From contig JAKEGO010000020.1 in the NCBI GenBank assembly GCA_022615805.1, positions 1 through 35,677 on the forward strand: a stretch of 35,677 nt of DNA. Reading direction: 5' to 3'. Below are positions 7,044 to 35,677 of the stretch, in pieces. A model generated the notes under the pieces. The model saw only the letters and a list, made by a program, of their open reading frames with translations, ran no database searches and was not told where the DNA came from. Every line of letters starts with the position of its first letter. The stretch's first letter is position 1. Both the position numbers and the translations under genes were made by a program. This DNA comes from Thermoplasmata archaeon (GTDB lineage: Archaea > Thermoplasmatota > JAKEGO01).

Positions 7044-7084
7044 GATCTCGCCTCTGACCTCGTGATGACCTCGATGGCGGGGGC

Positions 7085-19823: not shown

Positions 19824-21470
19824 TCACAGTATGTCCAGGGCCCTCGCGAGGGCTTGATGGCCCCGGTACTCGGGTAGTATCATCGGGGCCGTCCCCTTCG
19901 GGGCGATCCCGGCCTCGTCGAGCATCCTGTTGTACTCGTCTATGTGCTTCAGGCTGAGCCTGCCGACCTTGCGCGTCCTCACGTACTCGGCGGTCCGGAT
20001 GCCCGCCCGTCTGCCGAAGACGTTGAAGTCGAGCAGCGAGTTCCCCATGAGCCTGTTCTTCCCGTGGACCCCGCCCGTCACCTCCCCCGCGCCGAAGAGC
20101 CCGGGTATCCGGGTCTCGGTCCGATCGTTCGTCTCCACGCCGCCGTTCTGGTAGTGGAGGGTTGGGTAGACCAGTATCGGGTGCTTCGTCATGTCGATGC
20201 CGAAGCGCTTGAACTTCCTGACCTCGCCTGCAAGCTTCCTCTCGATCGTCCCCTTTCCGTGTATCACGTCGATCATGGGCGAGTCCAGCCATACGCCGGG
20301 CATGCCCGTCGGGGTGACCAGGCCGCGGTCCTCCTCGCACTCGCGGATGAAGGACGCGGATTCGACGTCCCTTGGCTCGAGCGGGAACACGAAGGGGTCG
20401 CCGAACCTGTTGAGCGGCTTGGCCCCGAGGCCCCTCACCTTCTCGGTCGTGAGGATGCCGACCACGGCCTCCGGGTAGGCGTCCCCGGTCGGGTGGATCT
20501 GGATCGTGTCGAGGTCGAGCAGGTTCGCGCCGACGTGGTACGCCATGACGAGGCCGTCGCCGGTTGCGCCGTAGTGGTTGGTCGTCGGGTAGTTGCTCAG
20601 GTGGAGTCGCCCCGAGCCGCCCGTCGCGAGGATGGTCGCCTTCGCCCTGATGACATGGTGCTCCTTGGTCTCCAGGTTGAACGCGACCCCGCCCGCCACC
20701 GCCCCCTTGTCGTCGAGGAGCAGCTCCACGACCGGGCAGAATTCGAGGACCGGGATCTCCAGGTTGCGCGCGTGGTCCCTTATGTTCCTCATCATCTCCA
20801 TGCCCGTGTAGTCCTTCGCACTGTGCATCCTGTTCCTCGACGTGCCGCCGCCCGAGAGCTCCTGGAACTCGCCGTCGTCCATGCGGTCGTACATGACACC
20901 GAGGTCGAGGTGCCACCTCAGTATCTTCGGGGCGTCCATTGCGAGGGCACGGGCCATCTCCGGCTTGTTGGTGAAGTGGCCGCCGCCGTAGATGTCCAGG
21001 TAGTGGATCAGCGGACTGTCCACGCCCCTGTCGGCGGCCTGGATGCCCCCCTGGGCCATCATCGAGTTGGCGTCGCCGTGGCGGAGCTTCGTCGCGATGA
21101 GTATCCTGTCCACCGGGACGCCCGATTCGTGGGCGAAGATCGCGGCGACCGTCCCGGCGCCGCCGCCGCCGATGATGAGGATGTCGACATCGTGGTCGAT
21201 GTGACCGAGGTCGACGGCCCGAGGGTCGAGGACGGGGCGCGCCTCGAGGAGGTCGACGATGCCATTGTACATGAGAAGGCCCGCATCCGTGCCGACGCGC
21301 ACCTCGCGGCGGGTGCCCTCCATGTAGTCGGGGTGGAACCTCCTCAACATGTCCTCGCGCTGCTCCATGGACATGGGTTCGATGGCCCGCTCGATGTTCT
21401 CGGCCCGCTTCTCCTCCACGAGCCGGATCGAATCCATCATGTATTCAGGGTAACCGCTCTCGAGCTTCAT
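19824..21470 (-). CDS. SdhA/FrdA/NadB-family FAD flavoprotein (fumarate-reductase-like) with a ~110-aa N-terminal extension
   Basis: 548 aa with DILIIGGGGAGTVAA, SMMAQGGIQAA, IQIHPTG, TTEKVRGLGA, TLHYQNGGVETN and GLFGAGEVTGGVHGKNRLMGNSLLDFNVFGRRAG. Confidence 0.85.
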   Translation of the reverse strand: MKLESGYPEYMMDSIRLVEEKRAENIERAIEPMSMEQREDMLRRFHPDYMEGTRREVRVGTDAGLLMYNGIVDLLEARPVLDPRAVDLGHIDHDVDILIIGGGGAGTVAAIFAHESGVPVDRILIATKLRHGDANSMMAQGGIQAADRGVDSPLIHYLDIYGGGHFTNKPEMARALAMDAPKILRWHLDLGVMYDRMDDGEFQELSGGGTSRNRMHSAKDYTGMEMMRNIRDHARNLEIPVLEFCPVVELLLDDKGAVAGGVAFNLETKEHHVIRAKATILATGGSGRLHLSNYPTTNHYGATGDGLVMAYHVGANLLDLDTIQIHPTGDAYPEAVVGILTTEKVRGLGAKPLNRFGDPFVFPLEPRDVESASFIRECEEDRGLVTPTGMPGVWLDSPMIDVIHGKGTIERKLAGEVRKFKRFGIDMTKHPILVYPTLHYQNGGVETNDRTETRIPGLFGAGEVTGGVHGKNRLMGNSLLDFNVFGRRAGIRTAEYVRTRKVGRLSLKHIDEYNRMLDEAGIAPKGTAPMILPEYRGHQALARALDIL

Positions 21471-22229
21471 TCAATGGCCCCCCTTGACATCGTCGCCGCT
21501 GGCCTCGATCTTCAACGCCTTGTAACGCCGCCTCAACTCCGCCTCGTCCATGTTGACGAGCTCGTCCATGTCGGCGTCGTACTTGCCTGACTCGATCTCG
21601 CGGAGGCGCGCCTCCAGGTCCCTGGACGGCGGGTCCAGGTACTTGCCGTTGAGCCTGCGCGCGAGCTGCGCGACGTGGTAGTGCTTGATGTCCGCCGGGC
21701 ACCGCATCGCGCACATGCCGCACTGTATGCAGTCGAAGGACAGCTCGGCGGCGCGCCTGATGTTCCCTCTGAGGGCGTTCTGTATGTACATCATCACCTG
21801 GATGTCCTGGGGGCATGACTTGGTGCACGTGTTGCAGGAGACGCAGCGGGCGATCTCGGGGTATATCGACAGTATCGTCGATTCCTCGGGCCTCACCTCG
21901 TCGATGTCGTACATCGCTTTCGAGGCCGGCACGAACGGTATCTGCACGAGGTACATGCCCTCCTCGACCAGCTGCTGGCATGCGAGGGCGAAGTGCAGCT
22001 TCTGCTCGTCCTCCTTCCTGTAGATCGTCGAGCAGGCGCCGCAGAAGCCGGCCCTGCAGCCGCAGCTCCTGATGAACTGGTACCCGGCGTACTCGATGGC
22101 CTTCATTATCGTGAACCCGACGGGGACGTCGTACTTCTTCCCCATGATGAAGATCTCGTAGGTGGGCGCCCCCTCCGGCGCCTCCGTCCCCTTTCCCGAA
22201 CGCGCTGCCGATGATCCGCTCTCGTACAT
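21471..22229 (-). CDS. SdhB/FrdB-like iron-sulfur subunit ([2Fe-2S] N-domain plus two CxxCxxCxxxCP motifs)
   Basis: 252 aa with RSCGCRAGFCGACS...LAC (SdhB-type Cx4Cx2C...C), CVSCNTCTKSCP and CIQCGMCAMRCP. The stop directly abuts the flavoprotein ATG. Confidence 0.8.
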   Translation of the reverse strand: MYESGSSAARSGKGTEAPEGAPTYEIFIMGKKYDVPVGFTIMKAIEYAGYQFIRSCGCRAGFCGACSTIYRKEDEQKLHFALACQQLVEEGMYLVQIPFVPASKAMYDIDEVRPEESTILSIYPEIARCVSCNTCTKSCPQDIQVMMYIQNALRGNIRRAAELSFDCIQCGMCAMRCPADIKHYHVAQLARRLNGKYLDPPSRDLEARLREIESGKYDADMDELVNMDEAELRRRYKALKIEASGDDVKGGH

Positions 22230-22247: not shown

Positions 22248-23126
22248 TCACGATATGACCCCCTTCTCCCGCAGGAGGGGGATCGGGTCGACCGCGTGGG
22301 TCTCGAAGCCGCAGCTCCCGGTCCCGAGGCCGAATGCGACGGCCATGAGCTGCGTGTAGTACATGACGGGCACCTGGGAATAACCGTCGATGAGCTCCTC
22401 CGCCTCCTTGCCCCGGACGTCGAGGTTGAACCGGCAGAGAGGGCAGGAGAGCATGATGGCGTCCACTCCGCGCCCGAGGGCGTAGCTGGCGATCTTGCCG
22501 GCGCGCCTGGCGGTGGACTCCCTCTGCTCGATGGTCCGGTACGTGCCGCAGCACTCGACCTTGTACGGGTTGTCGACGACCTCGCCGCCGAGCGCGACGA
22601 TGAGGTCTGCAAGGATGCGCGGCTCCTCGGCATCGTCGATCGCGACCTCCCTGGGCCTCAGGAGCATGCACCCGTAGTAGGGCATGATCCGCATCCCCTT
22701 GAGCGGCCTCTTGACCTTCTTCCTCATGACGTCGAAACCGACCTCGTCCCTCAGGAACTCGAGGAGGTGCTGGACCTTAACCGTTCCTTTGTAATCGTTC
22801 TCACGGTCCATGAAGGCGTTGAGGGTGTCGAGGTCCGCCTTTCGCGCCTTGACCCTCGTGTCGGTCTGTTTCAGGGTGTTGGAGCACATGTCGCAGATGA
22901 CGACGACGCGCTGGTGCCCCTGGTCCTCGACATGGACGAGGTTCCTCAGGGGTGCGACGTGGTGCATGAGATCGTCGGTGGTGAGGGAGGATGCGACGCC
23001 GCAGCAGTTCCACTCGTCCATCTCCCTGAGCTCGTGCCCGAGGGCGCGGAGGACCGCGACCGCGGAGGACTCGAGGTTCTTCGCGGACGTCTTCATCGTG
23101 CAGCCGGGGTAGTACAGCAGTTCCAT
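22248..23126 (-). CDS. hdrB: HdrB-like heterodisulfide reductase catalytic subunit (two CCG domains)
   Basis: 292 aa with YYPGC...WNCCGVAS...ICDMCSNTL and PYYGC...VECCGTYR...LSCPLCRFNL. Confidence 0.9.
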   Translation of the reverse strand: MELLYYPGCTMKTSAKNLESSAVAVLRALGHELREMDEWNCCGVASSLTTDDLMHHVAPLRNLVHVEDQGHQRVVVICDMCSNTLKQTDTRVKARKADLDTLNAFMDRENDYKGTVKVQHLLEFLRDEVGFDVMRKKVKRPLKGMRIMPYYGCMLLRPREVAIDDAEEPRILADLIVALGGEVVDNPYKVECCGTYRTIEQRESTARRAGKIASYALGRGVDAIMLSCPLCRFNLDVRGKEAEELIDGYSQVPVMYYTQLMAVAFGLGTGSCGFETHAVDPIPLLREKGVIS

Positions 23127-23130
23127 GGTA

Positions 23131-23562
23131 TCATCCGACGTTCTTCCTGAAGAGGCAGACGAAAGCCAGCTGCGGTATGCTGCGCTTCTCCTCCTCGGTG
23201 AGCCCGGTCATGTCCGTCTCGTCGATGTTGCTCCGGAGGACGATCTGCCGCAGGGCCTCCATGATCTTCGTGATGTTGAGGTCGCGGGGGCACCTCTCCG
23301 CGCACGTGAAGCAGGATGCGCACAACCATATCGTCTTCGAGCGGAGCACTTCCTTCCGGTCCATGATCACGTGTCGGAGGACCTCGTCGGGGGTCAGGTC
23401 CATCTCGTCGATGAAGGGGCACCCGGCGGCGCACGTGCCGCACTGGTAGCAACCGAACACGTTCTCGTCGCAGAGGTCCTGCAGCTCATCGATGAGAGTG
23501 CCCGATAACCTCGGGACCTTCTCCTGTGCGGCCTCCTCGCTCCTCCTGGATTCGGTCGCCAT
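23131..23562 (-). CDS. hdrC: HdrC-like 2x[4Fe-4S] subunit
   Basis: It starts at the ATG at 23562 (MATESRRSEE...), preceded by GGAGGG. It has CYQCGTCAAGCP and CASCFTCAERCP. Confidence 0.85.
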   Translation of the reverse strand: MATESRRSEEAAQEKVPRLSGTLIDELQDLCDENVFGCYQCGTCAAGCPFIDEMDLTPDEVLRHVIMDRKEVLRSKTIWLCASCFTCAERCPRDLNITKIMEALRQIVLRSNIDETDMTGLTEEEKRSIPQLAFVCLFRKNVG

Positions 23563-23863
23563 GATAGCCCTCCGTAATCGAATGGTGCAACAGCCCCTTC
23601 GCTGCCGTAGCAACCTGGATACCGTTTTTCCGTTATAAGGATTTGACGGTCGCGAACTGGTCCGATTTTGACATTTAATTGATATTTTTCAAAAAAAGGT
23701 ATCACATTGGCCAGTACCTGAGACCCGTTTTACCATTTTGCGAGTTATTACGGGTCGAATTCTCCCTCTCGGACGGAGACCCCCCCGCCAGTCGGCGGCT
23801 GAAGCGCCGCCCGCGGGACACGTAGCGGTGCATTGATGCGCCCGGGTACGGCGTACGCCGCGT
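23563..23863 (-). promoter_or_regulatory. Inter-operon region holding a probable oligo-T terminator for the upstream unit and TATA-like promoter elements for the hdrC-...-flxA unit
   Basis: This is the only gap over 100 nt between 35677 and 10184. The minus strand reads ...ACCTTTTTTTGAAAAATATCAATTAAATGTCAAAATCGG...GTCAAATCCTTATAACGGAAAAACGG... It has a T7 run (plus strand 23691-23697), AT-rich boxes (plus strand ~23672-23690 and 23629-23638) and two TTTGAC copies (plus strand 23642-23647 and 23667-23672). A GGCGGC/GCCGCC hairpin lies at 23794-23811. Confidence 0.4.
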
Positions 23864-26800
23864 TCATAGCACCTCGCATATCGCCCCCTTGATGAGGGAG
23901 AGGATCTGCTGGTCCTTGAAGCCCTTCTGCTGTATGGCCCCGGAGCGGCAGGTGGCGGCGCAGAGGCCGCACCCCTTGCAAAGGGCCTCGGTGACGGCTG
24001 CATGGCCGTCCTTGAGCTCGATGGCGTTGTAGGGGCACGCGGCGACGCACAGACCGCAGCCGACGCACATCGCATCGTCGACCGCCGAGACCGTGGCCTC
24101 GGCCTCGAAGTGGTCCTTCGAGATGATGGTGCAAGCCCTGCTTGCCGCGGCGTAGGCCTGGGCGATGGTCTCGCCTATGAACTTGGGGGAGTGGGCCATG
24201 CCGGCGAGGAAGACCCCCTCCGTGCTGAAGTCCACGGGCCTGAGCTTGACGTGCGCCTCGAGGAAGAACCCGTCCGAGTTGAGCGGGACCTTGAGGAGCT
24301 TGCCCAGTGCCTCGTTTCCGTCGGGGGGTGCGATCGCGGGGGACAATACCACCCTGTCCGCCGATATGTCGATGTCCTCGCCGAGTATCGGGTCCCGGAC
24401 TCGCACCTCGAGGCCGCCGCCGGTCCGGGCGACGACGGGCTTGCGGTCAAGGTCGTACCGGACGAAGATGACGCCCTTCTCCCGGGCCCGTTCGTACAGG
24501 GTCTCGTTGAAGCCGTACGTGCGCATGTCGCGGTAGAGGACGAACACGCGGGCGTCGGGGTAGCGTTCCACCACCCGCAGCGCGTTCTTCACCGCGTTCG
24601 TGCAGCATATCCTGCTGCAATATGGCCGGTGGTCCTCCCTCGAACCCACGCACTGTATCAGCGCCAGCGTCGAACCGGAGAGGTCGGCCCCCTCCGCCAG
24701 CATCCGCTCCAGGTCCGTCTGAGTGACGACGTCGGGGTCCTGGCCGCACAAGTACTCCGTCGGGACGGACTCGACCGCTCCTGTCGCGACCACGACGACG
24801 CCGTGCTCGATGACCGTCCCGGAACCGCCATGGTCGAGGGTGGTACGGTAGTTGCCGACGTACCCCTCGATGGTCGAGATGGCCGCGCCCGTATGGACCC
24901 GGACCCGCCCGTCCGCCTCGACCCGCGCCGTCAGCCCCCGGAGGAAGGCCTGGACGTCTGCCCCGTCCGCCGTCGTGTGGATGTGGTTCAGGTTGCCGCC
25001 GAGCCGGGAGTCGCGCTCGACGATGTCCACGTCGTAGCCCTGCTCCGCGATGGCGAGGGCCGCCGTCATCCCTGCGAGGCCTCCGCCGACGACCAGCGCT
25101 GACTGCGTCACGCCGAGCCTCACCTTGGACAACGGCTCGATGATCTGCGCCTTCGAGACCGCCATGCGGACGAGGTCGCGGGCCTTGGCTGTGGCGCTCG
25201 CCCTCTCGCCCATGTGGACCCACGAGCACTGGTCGCGGATGTTGGCCATCTCGAACAGGTGGGCGTTGAGCCCCGCCTCCCGCAGGGTCGACTGGAACAG
25301 CGGCTCGTGCGTGCGGGGCGTGCACGACGCCACGATCACGCGGTTGAGGTGGTGCTCCTGGATCGTCTCCACGAACCGCTTCTGCGTGTCCTGCGAGCAC
25401 GTGTAGAGGTTGTCCTCCGCGTGGACGACGTTCGGCAGGCCGCGGGCGTAGGCGACGAGCCCGGGCACGTCGATGTAACCGCCGATGTTGATCCCGCAGT
25501 GGCAGATGAAGACGCCGATCCGCGGAGCATCCCCCCGGACGTCCGCCTCGGCGGGGAGGGCCTTGCCGCCCACGAGGGTGTCCCTCGCGCTCGCTATCAG
25601 CCCGCTGGCCCTCGCGGCCGCCCCCGATGCCTCCATGACCGTCTCCGGGATGTCCTTCGGCCCCGCGAAAGAGCCGCAGACGAAGACCCCCTCGCGGGAC
25701 GTGCTGACGGGGTCGAGGCCGTCGACGGCGCAGAACCCCCTCTCCGTGAGTTCGACGCCGACGCGTTCGGCGAGCCGGCGGGCGCCCTCGCTCGCCGTGA
25801 AGCCCACAGAGAGCACGACGAGGTCGAACCTCTCCTCTTCGATGTGGCCATCCTCGGTCTCGTACCTTATCAGGAGGTCGTTGGTTTCCGGGTCCTCTTC
25901 GACCCTGGAGACGCGGCACCGCAGGAACCTGACCCCGTACTCGTCCCGCGCCCTGTCGTAATAGGCCTCGAAGCCCTTCCCGAAGGTGCGCATGTCCATG
26001 AAGAATATCGTCGGCTCGATGGTAGGGACGTGCTCCTTTGCGATCACCGCCTCCTTGATCGCATACGTGCAGCAGACGGACGAGCAGTAGTCCCTCCCGC
26101 AGCCGAGGTCCCTCGAGCCCACGCACTGCAACCACGCTATGCGCCGGGGCTGGACGCCGTCCGACGGCCTCAGGACGTGGCTCCTGAAGGGGCCGCTGGC
26201 GGAGAGGATGCGCTCGAACTCGATGCTCGATACGACGTTCGGGAAGCGCCCGTGGCCGTACTCGGGCTTGAGCGCCGGGTCGAACTCCTCGAAGCCCGGG
26301 CAGAGGATCACGCTGCCGACCCGCAGCTCCACAATCTCGTCCTTGTCGTCGTACCGGATCGCATTCGCGAGGCACAGGTTCTCGCACAGGCCGCAGCCGA
26401 TGCACCTCTCCCGGTCGATGGCGAAGGCGAGCGGGACCGCTTGCGGGTAGAGGAGGTAGATCGCACGCCTCTCGTTCATCCCCTCGTTGAAGGAGTTGAT
26501 GGCGTCGATGGGGCACTCCCTCGCGCAGACGCCGCAGCCGGTGCAGGCCTCGGGGTCCACGTAGCGGGCCTTTCGCCTGATCCTCACGCGGAAGTCGCCC
26601 GGCGTGCCCTCGAACCCCTCCACCTCGGAGTAGGTGACGAGCTCGATGTTCGGGTGGCGGCCGACATCGACGAGCTTCGGTGCCATTATGCACATGGAGC
26701 AGTCGTTGGTCGGGAAGGTCTTGTCCAGCTGGGCCATCGTGCCGCCGATGCCGGGCGCCGTGTCGACGAGGTAGACCTTGAACCCGGAGTTCGCTAGGTC

Positions 26801-26875
26801 GAGGGCCGCCTGCATGCCGGCGATGCCGCCGCCCACCACGAGGACCGCACCCACGGCATCGGGCGTCACCGACAC
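23864..26875 (-). CDS. hdrA: Giant two-module HdrA-like flavoprotein, paralog 2
   Basis: 1003 aa with VLVVGGGIAGMQAALD, DKTFPTNDCSMC, CTGCGVCARECP / CIGCGLCENLC, CVGSRDLGCGRDYCSSVCC, IGVFICHCGINI, ALVVGGGLAGMTAALAIAE, CVGSREDHRPYCSRICC and CVGCGLCVAACP / CKGCGLCAATCRSGAIQQKGF. The start is a GTG at 26875 (or the GTG at 26869), overlapping the upstream stop. Confidence 0.9.
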   Translation of the reverse strand: MSVTPDAVGAVLVVGGGIAGMQAALDLANSGFKVYLVDTAPGIGGTMAQLDKTFPTNDCSMCIMAPKLVDVGRHPNIELVTYSEVEGFEGTPGDFRVRIRRKARYVDPEACTGCGVCARECPIDAINSFNEGMNERRAIYLLYPQAVPLAFAIDRERCIGCGLCENLCLANAIRYDDKDEIVELRVGSVILCPGFEEFDPALKPEYGHGRFPNVVSSIEFERILSASGPFRSHVLRPSDGVQPRRIAWLQCVGSRDLGCGRDYCSSVCCTYAIKEAVIAKEHVPTIEPTIFFMDMRTFGKGFEAYYDRARDEYGVRFLRCRVSRVEEDPETNDLLIRYETEDGHIEEERFDLVVLSVGFTASEGARRLAERVGVELTERGFCAVDGLDPVSTSREGVFVCGSFAGPKDIPETVMEASGAAARASGLIASARDTLVGGKALPAEADVRGDAPRIGVFICHCGINIGGYIDVPGLVAYARGLPNVVHAEDNLYTCSQDTQKRFVETIQEHHLNRVIVASCTPRTHEPLFQSTLREAGLNAHLFEMANIRDQCSWVHMGERASATAKARDLVRMAVSKAQIIEPLSKVRLGVTQSALVVGGGLAGMTAALAIAEQGYDVDIVERDSRLGGNLNHIHTTADGADVQAFLRGLTARVEADGRVRVHTGAAISTIEGYVGNYRTTLDHGGSGTVIEHGVVVVATGAVESVPTEYLCGQDPDVVTQTDLERMLAEGADLSGSTLALIQCVGSREDHRPYCSRICCTNAVKNALRVVERYPDARVFVLYRDMRTYGFNETLYERAREKGVIFVRYDLDRKPVVARTGGGLEVRVRDPILGEDIDISADRVVLSPAIAPPDGNEALGKLLKVPLNSDGFFLEAHVKLRPVDFSTEGVFLAGMAHSPKFIGETIAQAYAAASRACTIISKDHFEAEATVSAVDDAMCVGCGLCVAACPYNAIELKDGHAAVTEALCKGCGLCAATCRSGAIQQKGFKDQQILSLIKGAICEVL

Positions 26876-27639
26876 TCACCCCCGGTCCCCGCGAGAACGT
26901 AGAGCGGGGAGTCGCCGTCCATCCCGCCCGAGTGGACGATCCCCCGGTCCTCCAGGTCGACGATGATGCGGAGGACGTCGCGCGGCGGCATGTCGAGGGC
27001 GCCCGCTATGGTCCCGACGGTCATGGGGCCCTTGCCGAGCTCGGCGCGGACCCGCTGCCGGAAGTGCTCGACCGAGATGTTGCGCCAAAGAACCTCGCGG
27101 AAGGCGTCGGCGTCGAGGACCTCCCCGTACGCGTTGCCGGCCTCCACGAGCTCGCGCTCCTTGCCGACCAGCCAACGGAGCCGGTCGCTCGCAGCGATCC
27201 CCTCTCCCACGGCGGCCCTCTCCGAGGCCCCCGGGACGCCGGACAGGGGCCCGAGGGCGCGCACCCGCCCGACGAAGCACGTGATGACCTCGCCGAAACG
27301 CTGGCCTTCCGCGGCCGAGACCCAGTCCAGGAGGAGGCGCTCGGGCTCGATGCCGACCTCCTCCAGGATCCTGCTCGCCATCGCCATCTTCCTTTCGGCC
27401 TGGTAGTTCCCGGTGAGGTAGTGGCAGTCGCCGGGGTGGCACCCGAGGACCGCAACGCCGTCTGCGCCGCCTCTGAAGGCCTCCAGCACAAGTACCGGGT
27501 CCACGCGGCCGGAGCACATGACGCGGATGACGCGGACGTTGGGAGGGTACTGCACCCGGGAGACGCCGGCGAGGTCGGCGCCGGCGTAGGCGCACCAGTT
27601 GCAGAGGAAACCCAGTATGCGTGGCTCCCAGGAGGTCAT
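26866..27639 (-). CDS. mvhD: MvhD-like [2Fe-2S] subunit fused to a ~120-aa C-terminal extension with a winged-helix-like segment
   Basis: It starts at the ATG at 27639 (MTSWEPRILGFLCNWCAYAGADLAGVSRVQYPPNVRVIRVMCSGRVDP...[10 protein letters not shown]), with an ATGA overlap to the hdrA stop. The extension ends ...GPMTVGTIAGALDMPPRDVLRIIVDLEDRGIVHSGGMDGDSPLYVLAG. Confidence 0.85.
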   Translation of the reverse strand: MTSWEPRILGFLCNWCAYAGADLAGVSRVQYPPNVRVIRVMCSGRVDPVLVLEAFRGGADGVAVLGCHPGDCHYLTGNYQAERKMAMASRILEEVGIEPERLLLDWVSAAEGQRFGEVITCFVGRVRALGPLSGVPGASERAAVGEGIAASDRLRWLVGKERELVEAGNAYGEVLDADAFREVLWRNISVEHFRQRVRAELGKGPMTVGTIAGALDMPPRDVLRIIVDLEDRGIVHSGGMDGDSPLYVLAGTGGECR

Positions 27640-30600
27640 GGCCGCACCCCCCCGAAGGCGTCGATCTGCGCCCCGATCTCGTCGTCCGTGAAGTGCCGCA
27701 TGGTGATCGCGAGCTTCGGGCACGAGGCGCCGCAGACGCCGCACCCCTTGCACGATGCCGATATGACCGTGGCCTTCCGGCCCCCCTCCATCAGCGATAT
27801 GTCGATCGCCTTGAAAGGGCACAGGGAGGCGCAGAGGCCGCATCCGATGCAGAGGTCGCGGTCGACGACCGCGACGGCGGGGTCCACGGTCACCCGCCCC
27901 TTGGACAGGAGCGTGGCGGCCCTCCCGGCCGCGGCGCAGGCCTGCGCGATCGACTCGTCAATCGTCTTCGGCGAATGGGCCATTCCGGCGAGGAAGACGC
28001 CGTCGGTGGCGAAGTCCACCGGCCGGAGCTTGACGTGGGCCTCCAGGAAGAAGCCGTCGGCGTTCCGCGGGACCTTGAGCATCTTCGCAAGGGCCATGCT
28101 GTCCTCCCTCGGCTCGATGGCGGGGCTCAGCGCGAGGAGGTCGGCGTCTATGACGATGTCCTCGCCGAGGATGGGCTCGCGGGCCGTTATCCTGAGGCGG
28201 CCTGCCTCGGAGGTCACGACCGGTGGTCCCTCCGGGTCGAACCTGATGAAGATGGCGCCGAGCTCCCGCGCCCTCTCGTAGGCGACCTCCCGCGTGCCGT
28301 AGGTGCGGATGTCGCGGTAGAGGACGAACACCCGGGCGTCGGGGAAGGTCTCGAGGATGCGGACTGCGTTCTTCACGGCGTCGATGCAGCACACGCGGCT
28401 GCAGTACGGGCGGGCCGTGTCGCGCGAGCCGACGCACTGTATCATCGCGACGGTCCTGCCGGACAGGTCCTCGCCATCGGCCACCATCCGCTCGAGCTGG
28501 CGCTGGGTGACGACGCGCTCGTCCATGCCGTACATGTACGCGTCCGGGACGGACTCGACGGCGCCGGTGGCGACGATGACGGCGCCGTGCTCGACGGCCG
28601 TCGTCGAGCCGGCAGCCTCGAGGACCGTCCTGAAGTTCCCGACATAGCCTTCGATGGACGCGATCGCGGACGAGAGACGGAGGTCGATGAGCGGGTGGCC
28701 CCGGACCCGCGAGACGAGCTCCGCCAGGTAGGACGGGACGTCGTCGTTCTCGAGCGTGTAGCGGGTGTGGAGGAGGTTGCCGCCGAGGCGGTCCTCCCGC
28801 TCGACCAGGGTCGCGGGGAATCCCTGTCCCGCGAGGGCGAGTGCGGCCGTCATGCCGGCGAGCCCGCCGCCGATCACCAGGGCGCGGGGGTTGACGTCGA
28901 GCGTCACCTCCTCGAGGGGCTCGATGAGGAGTGCCTTCGCCACGGCCATGCGCACCTGGTCGCTCGCCTTCGCGGTGGCCTCCTCGGGCGCGTTCATGTG
29001 GACCCACGAGCACTGGTCGCGTATGTTCGCCATCTCGAACAGGTGCGGGTTCAGCCCGGCCTCGCGGAGGGTCTCCTTGAAGAGGGGCTCGTGCGTCCGG
29101 GGCGTGCACGAGGCGACGATGACGCGGTTCAGGCCGTGCTCGCGGATCCGCTCCACGAGCGAGCGCTGGGCGTCCGCCGAGCACGTGTAGAGGCTGTCCT
29201 CGGCGAGGACGACTCCGGGCAGGCCCCTCGCGTACTCGACCACCGCCGGGACGTCGACGTAGGCGCCGATGTTGATGCCGCAGTGGCAGACGAAGACGCC
29301 CACCCTCGGCACCTGGCCACGGACGTCGATCTCGGCGGGGTGCTCGGCCCGGGTCACCAGGGCGCCGCGCGAGCCGGCGATGAGGGCGCCCGCCCTGGCG
29401 GCGGCGCCCGATGCCTCGATGACCGTCTCCGGGATGTCCTTTGGCCCCGCGAAGGCCCCGCAGACGAAGACGCCGGGGACGCTCGTCTCCATGGGCGACG
29501 TCTCGCCGGTCACGCAGAAGCCGAAGCGGTCCGTCTCGACGCCGACGAGGGACGCGAGGTCCCGGGCCGTCCGTCCGGGCTCGAGCCCGACCGAGAGGAC
29601 GACCATGTCGAACCTCTCCTCACGGAGGCTGCCGTCCTCCGCCTCGTACCTGACCACGAGGTCGTGGCTCCCGGGGGCCTCCCTGACGTCCGCGACGCGG
29701 GAACGGATGAAGCGGACGCCGTGCCTGTCCCTGGCGGCCGTGAAGTACTCCTCGAAGCCCTTGCCGAAGGTGCGCATGTCCATGTAGAACATCGTCGGCT
29801 CGATGCGCGGGTCGTGCTCCCTCGCGATGACGGCCTCCTTTATGCCGTAGGTGCAGCAGACGGACGAGCAGTACTCGTTGCCGCACCCCCGGTCCCGCGA
29901 GCCGACGCAGTTGATCCATGCGATGCGCCGCGGCTCGGCGCCGTCGGACGGGCGGCGCACGTGCCCCTCGTACGGCCCGCTGGCCGAGAGGATGCGCTCG
30001 AACTCGAGGCTCGTGACGACGTTCGGGAAGTTCTCGTATCCGTACTCCCCCTTCAGGCGAGGATCGAACCCCTCGAAACCGGGCGCGAGGACGATGGCCC
30101 CGACCTCGAGGACGCGCTCCCTGTCCTCCATGTCGAGGTCGACCGCGCCCGCAGGACAGACGGAGACGCACTTCTGCACGCACTTCCCCTTCGTGACCTG
30201 GAGGCAGCGCTCGGGGTCGACGACGTATCGCATCGGCACGGCCTGCGGGTACGGGATGTATATCGCCCCGCGCCTCGAGAGCCCCTCGTCGTAGTCGTCT
30301 GGGAACCTTCCCGCGAGGACGCACGCCTCGGCGCAGAGGCCGCAGCCCACGCAGGCTTCGGTGACGCGGCGGGCGCGCTCGCGCACCTTGACCCGGAACG
30401 CTCCGGCCTCGCCCTCCACAGCGACCACGTCGGCGTTGGTCGCGAGGTCGACGTTCGGGTGCCTCCCGATGTCGACGAGCTTCGGGGAGAGTATGCACAG
30501 CGAGCAATCGTTCGTGGGGAAGGTCTTGTCGAGCTGCGCCATGACGCCGCCGATGGCCGGCGAGCCCTCGACGAGGTGCACGCGGAAGCCCGCCTCCGCG

Positions 30601-30827
30601 AGGTCGAGCGCGGCCTGTATTCCTCCGACGCCCCCGCCCACGACGAGCGCGGCGCCGACCGGGGCGCGCGCTCCCGTCGCCCCGGGAACGCTTCCGCCGG
30701 ACGCACCGGGTTCGGATGCGCCGCCTCCAGCTGCCCTCGCTGCCTCGGGCACGCCCGGACCGGATACGGGGGTGGCGCCATCGTGACCGCAGGCGCACCC
30801 CTCCGTCCCCGCCGGCCTCGGGCTCAT
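27636..30827 (-). CDS. hdrA: Giant two-module HdrA-like flavoprotein, paralog 3, with a low-complexity CxC-containing N-terminal extension
   Basis: 1063 aa with ALVVGGGVGGIQAALD, DKTFPTNDCSLC, CVGCGLCAEAC, CVGSRDRGCGNEYCSSVCC, VGVFVCHCGINI, ALVIGGGLAGMTAALALAG, CVGSRDTARPYCSRVCC and CIGCGLCASLCP / CKGCGVCGASCP. The ATG at 30827 overlaps the hdrB stop (ATGA). Confidence 0.9.
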   Translation of the reverse strand: MSPRPAGTEGCACGHDGATPVSGPGVPEAARAAGGGASEPGASGGSVPGATGARAPVGAALVVGGGVGGIQAALDLAEAGFRVHLVEGSPAIGGVMAQLDKTFPTNDCSLCILSPKLVDIGRHPNVDLATNADVVAVEGEAGAFRVKVRERARRVTEACVGCGLCAEACVLAGRFPDDYDEGLSRRGAIYIPYPQAVPMRYVVDPERCLQVTKGKCVQKCVSVCPAGAVDLDMEDRERVLEVGAIVLAPGFEGFDPRLKGEYGYENFPNVVTSLEFERILSASGPYEGHVRRPSDGAEPRRIAWINCVGSRDRGCGNEYCSSVCCTYGIKEAVIAREHDPRIEPTMFYMDMRTFGKGFEEYFTAARDRHGVRFIRSRVADVREAPGSHDLVVRYEAEDGSLREERFDMVVLSVGLEPGRTARDLASLVGVETDRFGFCVTGETSPMETSVPGVFVCGAFAGPKDIPETVIEASGAAARAGALIAGSRGALVTRAEHPAEIDVRGQVPRVGVFVCHCGINIGAYVDVPAVVEYARGLPGVVLAEDSLYTCSADAQRSLVERIREHGLNRVIVASCTPRTHEPLFKETLREAGLNPHLFEMANIRDQCSWVHMNAPEEATAKASDQVRMAVAKALLIEPLEEVTLDVNPRALVIGGGLAGMTAALALAGQGFPATLVEREDRLGGNLLHTRYTLENDDVPSYLAELVSRVRGHPLIDLRLSSAIASIEGYVGNFRTVLEAAGSTTAVEHGAVIVATGAVESVPDAYMYGMDERVVTQRQLERMVADGEDLSGRTVAMIQCVGSRDTARPYCSRVCCIDAVKNAVRILETFPDARVFVLYRDIRTYGTREVAYERARELGAIFIRFDPEGPPVVTSEAGRLRITAREPILGEDIVIDADLLALSPAIEPREDSMALAKMLKVPRNADGFFLEAHVKLRPVDFATDGVFLAGMAHSPKTIDESIAQACAAAGRAATLLSKGRVTVDPAVAVVDRDLCIGCGLCASLCPFKAIDISLMEGGRKATVISASCKGCGVCGASCPKLAITMRHFTDDEIGAQIDAFGGVRP

Positions 30828-31714
30828 TCGGCCCCCCCGGCGCCCCCGAGCTTCGCCATCAGCTCGGTGGGCTTTACCTTGTTAAGCCTGAAGCCGAGCT
30901 CCTTCGGGTCGACGCCGTAGGCGAGCCCCAGGACCTGCGGGTAGTACAGAACGGGGATGCCGTACGTCTCCCCGAACTCCTGCTCGATCTTGCGCTGGTT
31001 GTCCTCGTACATCACGGTGCAGAACGGGCATATCGAGACCAGGGCGTCGACGCCCGCCTTCCTGACCGACTCGAGCTTCGCCTTCGACATCCGGAGGGCG
31101 ATCCCCTGGTCCACGCCGAGGATGGCGCCGCCGCAGCAGTCGAGCTTTCCCTCGTAGTCGACCCATTTCGCGCCCGTGACGGAGACGAGCTCCTCCACGG
31201 TATGCGGGTCCTCCGGGTCGTCGAACCCCTCGTATATGTGCGCCGGCCGCAGGTAGTGGCACCCGTAATGGACCGCGAACCTGAGCCCGCTGAGGTCACG
31301 CACGACGGGCTCCTTCAGACGCTCGAGCCCGACGTCCTCGTACAGCACCCTCGAGAAGTGCTTCACCTTCACGCCGGGGCGGTACTCCCTGTCGACGAGC
31401 GCGAGCCGCCCGTTGACGCGGGCGAGGACGTCCGGATGGGCGTCCAGCTCCTTCTGCGCCTCGGTCAGGACCCCGGTGCAGGCGCTGCAGAGGGTGCAGA
31501 CGTCGAGCCCCATTTCCCCCGCCACGGCCAGGTTGCGGGCGGCCATCGCCATGGCGTCCTCCCTCGATGTCGACTTCATGGGGTAGCCGCAGCACGAGAA
31601 CGGCTCGACGTCGACGAATTCGATGCCGAGCTTCGCAGCCACGGCCCGGGCGCTCAGCTCGTAGTTCAGGCCCCGGACCGGTATCGTGCACCCGAGGAAG
31701 AGCGCGTACCTCAT
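30824..31714 (-). CDS. hdrB: HdrB-like subunit (two CCG domains)
   Basis: 296 aa from the ATG at 31714 (MRYALFLGCTIPVRG...FSCCGYPM...CTLCSACTG; HYGCHYLRP...LDCCGGAIL...SICPFCTVMY). Only this part of track ORF 30824..32116 is real. An ATGA overlap joins it to hdrC. Confidence 0.9.
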   Translation of the reverse strand: MRYALFLGCTIPVRGLNYELSARAVAAKLGIEFVDVEPFSCCGYPMKSTSREDAMAMAARNLAVAGEMGLDVCTLCSACTGVLTEAQKELDAHPDVLARVNGRLALVDREYRPGVKVKHFSRVLYEDVGLERLKEPVVRDLSGLRFAVHYGCHYLRPAHIYEGFDDPEDPHTVEELVSVTGAKWVDYEGKLDCCGGAILGVDQGIALRMSKAKLESVRKAGVDALVSICPFCTVMYEDNQRKIEQEFGETYGIPVLYYPQVLGLAYGVDPKELGFRLNKVKPTELMAKLGGAGGAE

Positions 31715-32205
31715 CCCGTGGTCACCTCCTCGAGTACCGGGTCCCTGCATATCTCTCGCACCTCGGGGATCTCCTTGCGGACCGGCGGGAGGCCCATCTT
31801 CTCGCGCTTCTTGTTGTCGAAGTCCTCGACCTCGTAGAGCCTTCCGTGCGCCATCAGGAGCCGCGCCTGCTCCCTGAAGGACGGGTGGACGTGACCCTCG
31901 CGCATCGCGATGTTCTTCAGCGCCGCCATGATGTCGGTGAGGCAGACGTCCTGGGGGCAGCGGTCGTAGCACGTGTAGCACGTGCTGCAGAGCCATATGA
32001 AGTCGGACGAGAGCACCTGCTCCCGCATCCCGAGGAGGACCATCCGGATGATCTTCCGGGGGTTGTACCTGTCGTCGATCTCGCGGACAGGGCACCCGGC
32101 GGTGCAGGTGCCGCACGCGAAGCAGCGGGAGATCTCCTTGCCGCCAAGCTCCGCCGCGACCTCGCGCCAGAAGCCGGCGTCGAGCTCGCTCGTCCTTATG
32201 GTCAT
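31711..32205 (-). CDS. hdrC: HdrC-like 2x[4Fe-4S] subunit
   Basis: 164 aa from the ATG at 32205 (MTIRTSELDAGFW...CFACGTCTAGCP...CSTCYTCYDRCP). Only the tail of track ORF 31711..33225 is real. Confidence 0.85.
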   Translation of the reverse strand: MTIRTSELDAGFWREVAAELGGKEISRCFACGTCTAGCPVREIDDRYNPRKIIRMVLLGMREQVLSSDFIWLCSTCYTCYDRCPQDVCLTDIMAALKNIAMREGHVHPSFREQARLLMAHGRLYEVEDFDNKKREKMGLPPVRKEIPEVREICRDPVLEEVTTG

Positions 32206-33254
32206 CACTTCGCCTCCATTACAGCCTTCTTCACGTCCTCCGGGGTGACCCCGGGGGCCTCGATGCCCGACGATTCGTAGAAACCCTCGACGGCCGAGAC
32301 GACCTCGGAGCCCTCGCGCTCCACGTCGCGCAGGGAGTCCTCCAGCCCGGAAAGCTCCTCCTTCGGGAGCATGGTGAAGTCCCCGGTGATGCCGATGTCG
32401 GCGATCCGCCGGCCGCGCACCTCCTGGGCCGTGCGGACCAGGCCGCCCCGGGCCTTGTACAACCCGTAGAGGATCTCGACGCCCTCGGCTATCTTGACGC
32501 CCCTGGGCATCCTCGGCACCTTCCGGTACAGGAACTCGGGGGAGTCGAACCACGCCGCCAGCTCGGCCATCTTCGCCACGACGTCGTCCGACAGTGCGAC
32601 GGGGATCAGCGGTCCCAGCAGCTCCCCGAACCTGCGGTGAAGCGCGCGGGTTATCTCTCCCCGCGGGGGCAACGCGTCGAGCTCGCGCCTCATCGTCGTG
32701 ACGTGCTCCTCGATGGTCTTGAAGACCTTGTCCCGGAACTTCTCGTCCGGTACCCTGACCGCCCTCGCCATGGCGCCGTAGTCGAAGTCCATCATCATGG
32801 AGCCGACGAACACCATCGATCCGTCGATGTTCGCCCCTCCGAGGCCGCCGATCTTCCTGCCTTCCGCGGTCACGATGTCGTTGACCTCGCGGAACCTCGT
32901 GTCGATGCCGAACTCGCCGTAGGCCTCGATCGGCGGGGCCGAGAGGTGACGGTAGATGTCCCTGACCCCCTTCGGGAACGCCGGGTTCCCGCGGTCCCAG
33001 ATCACGTGGAAGAATATCTGGTCGCGGTCGAGGTAGACCGTCCCGCCGCCGACCTCCCTCCGGAACAGCGGCAGGCCCTCGCGCTCCATCTGCGCGAGGT
33101 CGACCTCCTGCGAGGGGTCCTGGAAGTAACCTATGCTGATGAAGGGTCGGTCCGGGGAGACGGTCACGACCGCCTCGACGCCCATGCGGGCGAGGGCGTG
33201 GAATATCAGCATCGACTGCTTCCACGGCCTGACGCCGAGGTCGAGGAGGTACAT
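32205..33254 (-). CDS. lplA: Lipoate-protein ligase A-like protein (BPL/LPL catalytic domain plus C-terminal accessory domain)
   Basis: 349 aa with PFISIGYFQD, FRREVGGGTVYLD and NDIVTAEGRKIGGLGG. The last matches the GxKxxG catalytic-lysine motif of LplA. The stop overlaps the hdrC ATG by 1 nt. Confidence 0.85.
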   Translation of the reverse strand: MYLLDLGVRPWKQSMLIFHALARMGVEAVVTVSPDRPFISIGYFQDPSQEVDLAQMEREGLPLFRREVGGGTVYLDRDQIFFHVIWDRGNPAFPKGVRDIYRHLSAPPIEAYGEFGIDTRFREVNDIVTAEGRKIGGLGGANIDGSMVFVGSMMMDFDYGAMARAVRVPDEKFRDKVFKTIEEHVTTMRRELDALPPRGEITRALHRRFGELLGPLIPVALSDDVVAKMAELAAWFDSPEFLYRKVPRMPRGVKIAEGVEILYGLYKARGGLVRTAQEVRGRRIADIGITGDFTMLPKEELSGLEDSLRDVEREGSEVVSAVEGFYESSGIEAPGVTPEDVKKAVMEAK

Positions 33255-33311: not shown

Positions 33312-34373
33312 TCATTTCACCGCCTTCCATATGATGTCCTCGATGCTCCTGACCTGGAGAACCCGCTCGCCCTTCGCCGCCGCGGCGTTCGCCGCCTTCC
33401 TCAGGACGGTCTCGCACGTGGGGCAGGCCGTCACGATGGTGTCGGCGCCCGTGTCGAGCGCCTCGCGGACCCTCGCCATGGCGATGTCGTCCGACAGCGC
33501 GGCGTCGGACATGAGGATGCCGCCGCCGCCCCCGCAGCACATGGACCCCTTGCCGTGGTGGGTCATCTCGACCACCTCGCAGCCGAGCCGCCGGAGTATC
33601 TGCCGGGGCTCGTCGATGATGCCGAGGGTGCGGGAGAAGTCGCAGGGGTCGTGGTAGGTCACCTTGAGCCCCAGATCGGCCTCGGGGAGGCGCCCGAGGA
33701 TGGCCTGGAGGACGTGCCTCGCCTCGACCCCGTGGCCCTCGCGGAGGAAGACCGTGCAGGTCGGGCAGAGCGCTATCGCCTCGCCGCCGGCGCCGAAGGC
33801 CTCGCGGAACCGTTCCTTGTGCCCCTCGAAGTCGTCGACGAAGCCCATGACCTCCATCGGGAAGCCGCAGCAGACCTCGTCCACGACCTTCGGCTGGATG
33901 CCGAGGGCCTCCAGGATGCGGACGAACTTCTTCACGTTGTTGGGGCGCGACATGTACTGGCACCCGAGGAAGAGGGGGACCTCGCCGTCGCGGACGGGCG
34001 CCCTGACGTCCGCGTCGCCGTATATGTTCCCCGTGGCCTTCACGTTCTCGATGACGCGCCGGTGGACGTCGCTCGCGAAGCCCGCCCGGACGAGGTCGGC
34101 CCTCGCCGCGGCAACGATGCCCATTATCTCGACGTTCGCGGGGCACTTGGACATGCAGTCCCTGCAGGTCGTGCACTGGAAGAGCTTCATGGCCACCGCC
34201 GCGGAGGGCTCGATCTCGCCCTTGAGCAGGCCGTACGAGAGGATCACCTTTCCGCGGGGCCCGTCGGTGTCCCACCCTGTCCTGAGCCGAACGGGACACT
34301 CCTCGAGGCAGTAGGCGCAGCGGATGCAGACGTACATCTCGTTCTCGATCCTCGACAGCTCCCGGGCCTCCAT
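33312..34373 (-). CDS. HdrD/GlcF-like Fe-S protein (2x[4Fe-4S] ferredoxin domain plus two CCG domains)
   Basis: 353 aa with CIRCAYCLEECP and CTTCRDCMSKCP. CCG domain 1 is FLGCQY...VCCGFPM...LCPTCTVFL. CCG domain 2 is YHDPCDF...MCCGGGGG...TACPTCETVL. The ATG lies 1 nt after the upstream stop. Confidence 0.85.
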   Translation of the reverse strand: MEARELSRIENEMYVCIRCAYCLEECPVRLRTGWDTDGPRGKVILSYGLLKGEIEPSAAVAMKLFQCTTCRDCMSKCPANVEIMGIVAAARADLVRAGFASDVHRRVIENVKATGNIYGDADVRAPVRDGEVPLFLGCQYMSRPNNVKKFVRILEALGIQPKVVDEVCCGFPMEVMGFVDDFEGHKERFREAFGAGGEAIALCPTCTVFLREGHGVEARHVLQAILGRLPEADLGLKVTYHDPCDFSRTLGIIDEPRQILRRLGCEVVEMTHHGKGSMCCGGGGGILMSDAALSDDIAMARVREALDTGADTIVTACPTCETVLRKAANAAAAKGERVLQVRSIEDIIWKAVK

Positions 34374-34374: not shown

Positions 34375-35677
34375 TCACCGGCCCCCTATGGTGTAACGGA
34401 GGGGCGTCGCCGTCCTCCAGTCGTCCGGGGCGTCCTGGAGCTTGTGCGGGTTGAGGATCCCCTTCGGGTCGAGCGCGGCCTTTATCGACCGGAACAGCTC
34501 GAGCTGGGCCGCCTTCTCGGCCTTCCACATGGGGGCCTTCGAGAGCCCGATGCCGTGCTCGCCGGAGGTGGTCCCGCCGACCTCGCGGACGTGGGCGTAG
34601 AGCTCTTCCATCGCCCGCGCGGCCGCGGCCCACTGCGCCTCGCTGGCGGTCTCCATCAGGATCTTCGTGTGGATGAGCCCCGCGCCGCAGTGGCCGTAGG
34701 CGCTCATCACGATGCCGTGCCTGTCGGCGACCTCGTGGACCTTCCTCACGGTCTCGGCTATCCTCGAGACGGGGACGGCCAGGTCGTCGGCGAGCGACGT
34801 CGATACGATCCCTTCCCGGTACCGGGAGAGGGAGGGGAAGAGCTTCTGGCGGCCAGCGTAGATGCGGGCCATCTCCTTCGGGTCCGTGCTCACCTCGATC
34901 CCGTGGCCGCCGTTCGCCTCGAAGACCCGGGACACCTCGCCGATCTCCCTTTCGACCTCCTCGCGGGTCATGCCGTTGCACTCGAACATGATGATGGCCG
35001 CCGCTTCGCGCAGACCGAGGCCGAGGGAGGTGTTGACGGCGCGTATCGCGATGTCGTCCATCAGTTCCATCATCGACGGCCTGAGGCCGGTGGTCACGAC
35101 CGCCGTGATGGCCGAGCCGGCCTCCTCGAGGGTGTCGAAGTGCGCTATGCCCATGGCGCGGTCCTTCGGGAGCGGCGCTAGGAGCAGTGTGGCCTCGGTC
35201 ACCACGGCCAGGGTGCCCTCCGATCCAACGATGAGCCGGTGGACCTGGTAGCCGGACGACTCGACGCGGGTCCTGCCCCCGAGGTCGACCGCCTCGCCGC
35301 TCGCGAAAACGACCTTCATGCCCAGCACGGCATCGCGGGTGGCGCCGTACTTGACGGCACGGTTCCCCGACGCGTTCGTGCCTATCATTCCGCCGATCGT
35401 GCAGATGTTACCGGAGCTCGGCGTGGGCGGGAAGAAGAGCCCGTGGGGCTTCAGCTGCCTGTTGAGCTCGTCGTTGACGTCCCCCGCCTCGACCCTGCAG
35501 AGCATGTCGCCCGGGCTGATCTCCAGGACGCGGGACATGCGCTTCATGTCGAGGACGATGCCGCCGTCCACGGGGACCGCCTGGCCGGACATGGCGGAGC
35601 CCGCTCCGCGCGGAATGACCGGGACGCCGTTCCCGTTCGCGTACCTCAGTATCCCCTGCACCTCCTCCGTGCTCCCG
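34375..35677 (-). CDS. FAD-linked oxidase, GlcD / D-lactate dehydrogenase family. The N-terminus lies beyond the window end
   Basis: The frame stays open to 35677 (..GSTEEVQGILRYANGNGVPVIPRGAGSAMSGQ...). It has the FAD-binding PCMH-type segment GGMIGTNASGNRAVKYG and the C-terminal GGTTSGEHGIGLSK...DPKGILNPHK. The track start at 35661 is an internal GTG. Confidence 0.9.
   Translation of the reverse strand, partial: GSTEEVQGILRYANGNGVPVIPRGAGSAMSGQAVPVDGGIVLDMKRMSRVLEISPGDMLCRVEAGDVNDELNRQLKPHGLFFPPTPSSGNICTIGGMIGTNASGNRAVKYGATRDAVLGMKVVFASGEAVDLGGRTRVESSGYQVHRLIVGSEGTLAVVTEATLLLAPLPKDRAMGIAHFDTLEEAGSAITAVVTTGLRPSMMELMDDIAIRAVNTSLGLGLREAAAIIMFECNGMTREEVEREIGEVSRVFEANGGHGIEVSTDPKEMARIYAGRQKLFPSLSRYREGIVSTSLADDLAVPVSRIAETVRKVHEVADRHGIVMSAYGHCGAGLIHTKILMETASEAQWAAAARAMEELYAHVREVGGTTSGEHGIGLSKAPMWKAEKAAQLELFRSIKAALDPKGILNPHKLQDAPDDWRTATPLRYTIGGR

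Follow-up and report, generated by a model that had tools for sequence, protein, structure and literature searches.

The window analysed here, a stretch of 35,677 nucleotides from a Thermoplasmata archaeon (contig JAKEGO010000020.1, assembly GCA_022615805.1), carries between two hdrA genes a long mvhD gene, the product of which continues beyond a complete MvhD core into a helical and winged-helix extension. The long MvhD is a BamF-type protein placed in a different and uncharacterised complex, comprising two BamE-like HdrAs together with GlcD-, HdrD-, HdrCB- and LplA-like proteins, and its extension is probably a structural protein–protein docking arm of the BamF type, which would most likely bind protein and not DNA. 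MvhD is the universal plug between electron donors and the flavin-based electron-bifurcating enzymes of the HdrA type. Methanogens, sulfate reducers, aromatic degraders and many uncultured archaea all rely centrally on such enzymes in their energy metabolism.

The MvhD core and its extension

The gene, its parts and its comparator within the window are as follows.

26866..27639, minus strand: long MvhD gene, MvhD core followed by the helical and winged-helix extension (translation, Pfam, AlphaFold2)
27250..27618, minus strand: MvhD/FlpD [2Fe-2S] domain, residues 8-130 (Pfam, PDB MvhD chains, Foldseek)
27037..27249, minus strand: linker and helical part of the extension, residues 131-201, helices at 138-149, 152-167 and 177-201 (AlphaFold2)
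27121..27183, minus strand: most conserved motif of the extension family, R-x-R-W-L-x-G-K-E...L-x-E-x-G-N-V-Y-G-E, residues 153-173, here RLRWLVGKERELVEAGNAYGE (column conservation in the 143-sequence alignment A2; alignment A3)
26890..27036, minus strand: predicted winged helix-turn-helix (wHTH), residues 202-250, with S1 at 206, H2 at 208-215, H3 at 219-231 and the wing hairpin at 235-249 (AlphaFold2, family profile, Foldseek)
13246..13677, minus strand: short stand-alone MvhD of 143 residues in the third HdrA/Flx-like module, used as comparator (Pfam FlpD, 4e-58)

Translation of 26866-27639 gives a protein of 257 residues plus a stop, with the N-terminus MTSWEPRILGFLCNWCAYAGADLAG. The Pfam family FlpD/MvhD (PF02662) matches residues 8-130 over its entire model (1-123 of 123; E 7.8e-55, 184.6 bits against a cut-off of 22.3), and among the NCBIfam models only VhuD and the MvhD-like C-terminus of HdrA2 match, at residues 5-131. 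The PDB MvhD chains found by phmmer (5odc_D at 9e-54, 9sw2_D, 8rvu_F and 7bkb_F) likewise align with residues 1-132 only, and Foldseek assigned the core fold to MvhD (TM 0.93 with 5odh_D and 0.97 with 8rvu_F, root-mean-square deviation (rmsd) 0.8-1.9). All five conserved cysteines are present, namely C13 and C16 in CNWC, C42 in MCSG, and C67 and C72 in GCHPGDCH, and they align with those of 5odc_D; the pattern CxxC...C...CxxxxC takes in the [2Fe-2S] site and a redox-active cysteine next to it. Similar to the canonical short MvhD/VhuD/FlxD proteins (PF02662; 5ODC chain D and the 143-residue MvhD of the window), with which residues 1-132 align end to end at 54-60% identity and TM 0.93-0.97, the long MvhD has every cluster cysteine and its gene adjoins hdrA. 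The short MvhD of the window itself is 60% identical to the core over 135 residues (E 2e-67), and the first-pass annotation, which had read the first ~135 residues as a normal MvhD like that at 13246-13677, was correct in this respect. However, the canonical short MvhDs end at about 140 residues, whereas the long MvhD goes on for 127 residues more (131-257), close to the ~120 originally estimated. Unlike the MvhD linked to MvhAG, it has no adjoining hydrogenase; no match to NiFeSe_Hases, the [NiFe] hydrogenase large subunit, was detected in the source genome (74% complete) or within the window, so that the long MvhD would not literally be a hydrogenase subunit.

The AlphaFold2 (AF2) model, built on a 143-sequence multiple sequence alignment, reached a pLDDT of 96.1 and a pTM of 0.92, while prediction from the single sequence (pLDDT 57) was uninformative. 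In this model the alpha/beta MvhD core (8-129) is followed by helices at 138-149, 152-167 and 177-201, and then by a strand at 206, helices at 208-215 and 219-231 and a hairpin at 235-241/244-249, and the C-terminus of the extension is accordingly modelled as a canonical H1-S1-H2-H3-S2-wing-S3 winged helix. Its fold neighbours in the PDB (Foldseek) are Z-alpha domains, DsrD, CzrA and SmtB, and a 51-sequence profile of the extension matched ArsR/SmtB-type proteins among the PDB sequences through profile positions ~52-113 (PH1932 at 5e-7, NmtR at 4e-6 and HlyU at 1e-5). The model and the profile matches agree with the helix-turn-helix-plus-wing ending that had been noticed at first, and the structure prediction and profile hidden Markov model search of residues ~140-257 proposed at that stage have now been run, with a wHTH fold as the outcome. 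Curated libraries hold little of this domain: residues 131-201 are covered by no model in Pfam or NCBIfam, and the extension as a whole gave a sub-threshold match to DprA_WH only (19.0 bits against 22.9, E 1.4e-3), with no Pfam HTH family reaching its gathering score. A linker or low-complexity tail was rejected for the extension, which is conserved and modelled with high pLDDT, and a Z-DNA-binding role was rejected as well, the Z-alpha fold matches (E about 0.02) being generic wHTH similarity.

The extension family and its likeness to BamF

When the extension by itself was used in a word-indexed search, one relative (63% identity) was returned, which gave a misleading look of rarity. HMMER, run exhaustively with a two-sequence profile against 1.84 billion cluster representatives (clusters at 50% identity), matched 185 clusters at E<=1e-3, 46 of them at E<=1e-10, and a search with a profile of the full-length alignment yielded at least 120 proteins of ~258 residues, with 95-98% query coverage and ~50% identity. 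The fusion, for which a database search had been recommended in the first-pass annotation, is widespread and conserved among these relatives. Where the ~258-residue proteins bear a name, it is 'hydrogenase iron-sulfur subunit' (Bathyarchaeia) or 'coenzyme F420-reducing hydrogenase delta subunit/predicted transcriptional regulator'. The extension occurs in Thermoplasmatota (7 of 41 genomes), Bathyarchaeia, Desulfobacterota, Clostridia and Cloacimonadota, the Desulfobacterota count (84 of 301 sampled genomes) including weaker, partial matches that may comprise unrelated wHTH proteins; the 74%-complete source genome has one copy. Besides stand-alone forms of ~100-130 residues, which adjoin hdr genes, and MvhD fusions of ~240-270 residues, many of them truncated metagenome fragments, the family includes HdrA-MvhD-extension fusions (P0010, P0125), ferredoxin (Fer4)-MvhD-extension fusions (P0074, P0106, P0029) and one fusion of MvhD and the extension to a GltD/NfnB-like protein (P0087). 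Two further proteins, the NACHT protein P0085 and P0124, matched the generic wHTH part only and were left out of the family.

The strongest conservation in the family alignment falls in the helical part, where the motif RWLxGKE...GNVYGE is common to the GltD-type and HdrA-type subgroups, and the C-terminal part follows a hydrophobic winged-helix pattern, its conserved positions being mostly hydrophobic or structural (V, L, G, P and Y, plus a Ser). No cysteine of the extension is conserved across the family. The extension is a real, conserved and uncurated domain, and the fusion architecture together with the overlaps with neighbouring genes is far beyond chance.

The closest known counterpart is BamF of the class II benzoyl-CoA reductase of Geobacter metallireducens, a tungsten-dependent, ATP-independent complex of the composition Bam[(BC)2DEFGHI]2, in which BamF has been described as an MvhD adaptor more than 100 residues longer than usual (bioRxiv 10.64898/2026.04.10.717634). 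According to this cryo-EM preprint, the wHTH of BamF forms the interface with BamI, BamF ties the BamGHI input module to BamED and has a selenocysteine (Sec) at position 19, BamE is 'a fused HdrA dimer', and the BamFGHI arm rotates by ~28 degree between states (bioRxiv 10.64898/2026.04.10.717634). The original remark that no characterised MvhD-wHTH fusion was known is outdated by this work.

No BamF chain was among the matches of the PDB sequence and fold searches, and BamF-like proteins picked by gene context and Sec19 served as stand-ins. The bam-type clusters came from weaker, partial matches to the extension profile, in 236-residue frames truncated by Sec, and comprise three Desulfobacterota loci (L030-L032) with NuoE- and NuoF-like genes within 1 kb after the long MvhD. 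In L031 the gene order by Pfam is AOR (AFOR_N/AFOR_C, 652 residues), ferredoxin, double HdrA (936 residues), long MvhD, NuoE-like, NuoF-like and a Fer2_4/Fer4 protein, and in L030 and L032 the long MvhD contains the stretch ...FVCHW-U-AYGAADLAG, its in-frame TGA at residue 19 agreeing with the Sec19 of the preprint. Several other clusters with an extension near AOR or NuoF (G255:C4, G161, G226, G285, G073, G112 and G344) were tried as bam clusters and proved to be other Hdr/Flx/GltD-type clusters. The extension alignment A3 matched the extensions of the three BamF-like proteins in hhalign (98.35%, E 1.1e-14, 110 columns), the long MvhD aligned by BLASTP with one of them over 242 colinear residues at 38% identity (E 1e-56), and the BamE-like HdrAs of the three loci are 46-52% identical to the window HdrAs over ~930 residues. 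By these sequence comparisons the homology of the extension with that of the BamF-like proteins spans its whole length.

The long MvhD resembles BamF in having an MvhD [2Fe-2S] core and a C-terminal extension of more than 100 residues with a winged helix (here 127 residues, wHTH at 202-250, pLDDT above 95), and in having, as BamF has in BamE, a fused-dimer HdrA for a partner. It differs in that Cys16 (TGC, with no in-frame TGA) is found here where BamF has Sec19, in the GlcD/HdrD/HdrCB/LplA-like genes of its operon, and in its modelled architecture of one alpha/beta core plus helices, where the preprint gives two Rossmann-fold domains. No AOR (BamBC-like) gene is present in the window, and the one NuoF-like gene of the source genome lies on another contig.

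Probable docking and the alternative roles of the extension

The long mvhD gene is flanked by two double hdrA genes.

27636..30827, minus strand: upstream double (fused-dimer, BamE-like) HdrA, 1063 residues (Pfam and NCBIfam; FAD Rossmann units at ~61 and ~649)
23864..26875, minus strand: downstream double HdrA, 1003 residues (Pfam, NCBIfam)

These two HdrAs, which share 61% identity, score 1021 and 1013 bits against the NCBIfam HdrA2 model. The ATGA at 27636-27639 contains both the stop of the upstream hdrA and the start of mvhD, and the mvhD stop (26866-26868) overlaps the downstream hdrA start, either the GTG at 26875 or the GTGA at 26869, so the overlaps at both ends that were seen initially are real. 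From these junctions the long mvhD is judged to be translationally coupled to both hdrA neighbours, and this coupling places the gene as that of an enzyme subunit. The same arrangement was found widely in other genomes. Among roughly 24 long-MvhD genes, the gene before is HdrA in every case with a readable upstream neighbour, while the gene after is a double HdrA (18), a GltD-like gene (3), NuoE/NuoF/ferredoxin (3) or none (1). The triplet of double HdrA, long MvhD and double HdrA is also found in Bathyarchaeota, Clostridia, Cloacimonadota and uncultured bacteria, sometimes extended to HdrA-long-HdrA-long-HdrA.

The MvhD [2Fe-2S] core would bind an HdrA-type flavin-based electron-bifurcating subunit and relay single electrons, and its partner here is probably the upstream BamE-like double HdrA of ~1000 residues, in the way that MvhD sits on HdrA in the solved complexes. 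The C-terminal helical and winged-helix arm of ~125 residues would then fasten a second redox module onto the MvhD-HdrA unit, and this docking would bring the clusters within electron-transfer distance. Such a docking role is favoured because the extension, in archaea as well as in bacteria, constantly accompanies MvhD and HdrA, because it sits fused inside enzyme polypeptides of the HdrA-MvhD-extension and MvhD-extension-GltD types, and because its homology to the BamF-type extension, the winged helix of which is described as meeting BamI, spans the full length. In addition, the upstream HdrA is constant and the downstream module variable, the order MvhD-extension-GltD fits an adaptor between core and donor, short MvhD pairs with hydrogenase and long MvhD with the HdrA-HdrA junction, and the long mvhD overlaps its neighbours at both ends. 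As for the winged helix, DsrD offers a precedent of a wHTH that works as a protein effector, being an allosteric activator of DsrAB (PMC8794893).

Several points weigh against this interpretation. The family profile of the extension resembles true DNA-binding ArsR/SmtB regulators, and the wHTH is slightly basic on the family average (median +1). The comparison with BamF was made through stand-ins and not with the deposited Geobacter sequence or coordinates, and in the BamF-like subgroup the motif RWLxGKE...GNVYGE is replaced. In the MvhD-core tree the window protein falls only weakly (SH-aLRT 82) into a group that also takes in the GltD-type long MvhDs and the BamF-like clade (96). Moreover, no BamGHI-like (NuoE/F/G-like) module adjoins the gene and a double HdrA is found downstream instead, the docking target being a guess. 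The weak long-MvhD group of the tree lies apart from most short MvhDs; the tree, built on 135 columns, has too little resolution to establish that long MvhDs arose once, and it agrees with common ancestry but is not decisive.

The resemblance to ArsR/SmtB also bears on the redox-sensing, DNA-binding autoregulator proposed in the first-pass annotation, in which the winged helix would bind operator DNA, the [2Fe-2S] state of the MvhD core would switch this binding and the protein would autoregulate the hdr cluster. The modelled wHTH fold is real, the family profile reaches ArsR/SmtB repressors at E 5e-7 to 1e-5, some members are labelled 'predicted transcriptional regulator' by JGI pipelines, and a spacer of ~250 bp lies downstream of the operon (23614-23863). 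However, although the extension shares the wHTH fold and profile similarity over ~55 residues with PH1932, NmtR, HlyU, CzrA and SmtB, it differs from these repressors in lacking dimerisation helices and metal sites, in being fused to or encoded with redox subunits, and in its acidic surface, and the window protein alone stays below every Pfam HTH gathering score, with only the family profile reaching ArsR. The gene stands between, and is translationally coupled to, two hdrA genes in an arrangement kept across archaea and bacteria, so that an enzyme-embedded subunit would have to moonlight as a regulator, and the extension recurs inside the fusion polypeptides mentioned above. Conservation in the family is concentrated outside the recognition helix, and the homologous wHTH of BamF is a protein interface. 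Weaker evidence in the same direction comes from the charge of the window extension (net -5; recognition helix H3 -1; wing -2, isoelectric point 4.2) and from the spacer at 23540-23880, in which no inverted repeats or palindromes were found. Autoregulation is thus unsupported and highly improbable, and the long MvhD is most likely a subunit and not a regulator.

Two other roles would keep the extension within the enzyme. In the first, the extension would fold back on its own MvhD core or on the upstream double HdrA and recruit no second module, thereby replacing the MvhAG or second-MvhD contacts of (HdrABC-MvhAGD)2 and stabilising a fused-dimer HdrA that binds one MvhD. The pTM of 0.92, which implies a fixed packing of the extension on the core, the invariant upstream HdrA, and a top-conserved motif that spans subgroups with unlike downstream partners (GltD-type and HdrA-type) would all suit such a clamp, as would a long MvhD at 535-1302 in the metagenome contig L033, which closes a second, divergent operon (HdrC-HdrB-split HdrA-long MvhD) with no partner gene downstream. 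Yet the BamF wHTH touches BamI, which belongs to the input module, the MvhD-extension-GltD order sets the extension between the core and the donor module, and a double HdrA in itself needs no extension, as short MvhDs also pair with double HdrAs; such a clamp is considered unlikely. In the second, the winged helix would sense a ligand or a protein state and control an MvhD swing that gates electron transfer. Here the DsrD wHTH, which activates DsrAB allosterically and is a fold neighbour of the extension (1wq2_A, TM 0.74, rmsd 2.2), might serve as a model, since both are small wHTHs associated with redox enzymes and DsrD acts through protein contacts (PMC8794893), and the ~28 degree rotation of the BamFGHI arm in the preprint could be read in the same way. 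DsrD, however, has no detectable sequence relationship to the extension, belongs to another enzyme system and occurs free and not fused to MvhD; no ligand-binding motif, conserved pocket residues or conserved cysteines were identified in the extension, and gating is considered a very doubtful explanation. Sequence data alone do not separate the clamp or gating from docking.

Within the docking interpretation, the likeliest candidate for the module on the arm, tentatively assigned, is the second double HdrA, which is encoded directly downstream in translational coupling with the long mvhD. Of the first-pass suggestion of a docking domain bridging the two HdrA paralogs, the docking part is favoured by companionship, fusions and BamF homology, and the HdrA-HdrA bridging is inferred only. 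More speculatively, long MvhDs could daisy-chain bifurcation modules, with the core on one double HdrA and the arm gripping the next. If so, the conserved cassette of double HdrA, long MvhD and double HdrA, followed by short MvhD, HdrCB and a donor, would form a serial super-complex with two sites of flavin-based electron bifurcation, and in the present operon this would wire together a GlcD/HdrD-type 2-hydroxy-acid dehydrogenase, HdrBC and possibly a lipoyl carrier (LplA, GcvH-like gene). No characterised counterpart of such a daisy-chained HdrA-HdrA machine is known to us.

The BamF-style winged-helix arm is accordingly not peculiar to benzoyl-CoA reductase, being widespread, uncurated and always tied to HdrA, and its recognition corrects the annotations 'hydrogenase subunit' and 'transcriptional regulator' on long MvhDs. 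It can also mark clusters in which two or more bifurcating modules probably join physically. Of continuing interest are the possibility that two bifurcating HdrA modules are coupled in series and the lipoate-ligase and GcvH-like genes of the window.

Operon composition and other modules

The long mvhD belongs to an operon of the order glcD-hdrD-lplA-hdrC-hdrB-hdrA-mvhD_long-hdrA, the other members of which are listed here together with a lipoyl-carrier gene of the same window.

34375..35677, minus strand: GlcD-like FAD-linked oxidase, candidate D-lactate/glycolate dehydrogenase, running off the window end (Pfam FAD-oxidase_C 1e-57, FAD_binding_4 1e-39)
33312..34373, minus strand: HdrD/GlcF-like protein with Fer4_8 and two CCG domains (Pfam)
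32205..33254, minus strand: lipoate-protein ligase (LplA) between hdrD and hdrC (Pfam LplA-B_cat 2.4e-33)
31711..32205, minus strand: HdrC-like ferredoxin, start ATG at 32205, relatives of 158-162 residues (Pfam Fer4_8)
30824..31714, minus strand: HdrB-like protein with CCG domains, start ATG at 31714 (Pfam CCG 3.8e-26)
6612..7046, minus strand: GcvH-like lipoyl-carrier gene (PF01597, 2.8e-39)

The string glcD-hdrD-hdrC-hdrB-double hdrA-long mvhD-double hdrA is kept as a whole in Thermoplasmatota, Methanomassiliicoccales and one 'Methanobacteriota' metagenome-assembled genome. The ~1-kb LplA insert is also found in a relative of the same family (G001), and the LplA gene in the operon and the GcvH-like gene recall the sulfur-oxidising sHdr systems, with their lipoate-binding proteins and dedicated ligases.

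In two metagenome contigs, probably of Bathyarchaeia (L033 and L034), the genes run double HdrA, long MvhD, double HdrA, short MvhD, HdrC, HdrB, MvhG, MvhA and HycI, with the short MvhD on the hydrogenase (MvhGA) side and the long MvhD between the two double HdrAs. Desulfobacterota show further variants: HdrA, a long MvhD with in-frame TGA and a GltD/NfnB-like gene, then a 270-residue protein; NuoF-like ... HdrA, long MvhD, double HdrA, short MvhD, HdrCB and Flx-like genes; and HdrA-MvhD-extension triple fusions beside NuoF-like genes. One locus (L029, G344:C28) has two tandem pairs of a NuoF-like gene (636-638 residues) and such a triple fusion (824-837 residues), and in two others (L024, G161:C298; L026, G285:C134) a stand-alone extension open reading frame (ORF) of 128-175 residues lies between hdrB and an HdrL-like gene of ~1490 residues, followed by a short MvhD. 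The in-frame TGA of Desulfobacterota long MvhDs (L023 at G255:C4, L020, L025 and L030-L032), probably a selenocysteine codon, usually occupies the position C-x-W-U; in L023 it lies instead in the cluster-ligand motif GG-U-HPGECHY.

The rest of the window holds a third HdrA gene and additional redox genes.

13746..16970, minus strand: third HdrA gene of the window (HdrA match)
23131..23613, minus strand: HdrC-like gene, in a second module between the Hdr units
22248..23126, minus strand: CCG protein, same module
21471..22229, minus strand: SdhB-like, same module
19824..21470, minus strand: SdhA/Tfr-like flavoprotein, same module
17490..19675, minus strand: KorA/KorB 2-oxoacid:ferredoxin oxidoreductase, same module
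8825..10081, minus strand: LarA-like lactate racemase homologue after the Flx-like module (Pfam)

All three HdrAs of the window are ~1000-1074 residues long with two FAD-binding units each, which is the fused-dimer (BamE-like) architecture, and they share ~50% identity with the BamE-like ORFs of the bam-type clusters. The module at 17490-23613 (minus strand) suggests a thiol:fumarate-reductase-like output beside a ferredoxin-generating enzyme. At 8825-13677 (minus strand), the Flx-like module comprises the short MvhD, a 316-residue ORF without a Pfam match, a Fer4_22 protein and an FlxA-like NAD-binding protein. Taken with GlcD/HdrD, the LarA-like gene hints at a possible metabolism of 2-hydroxy acids (lactate).

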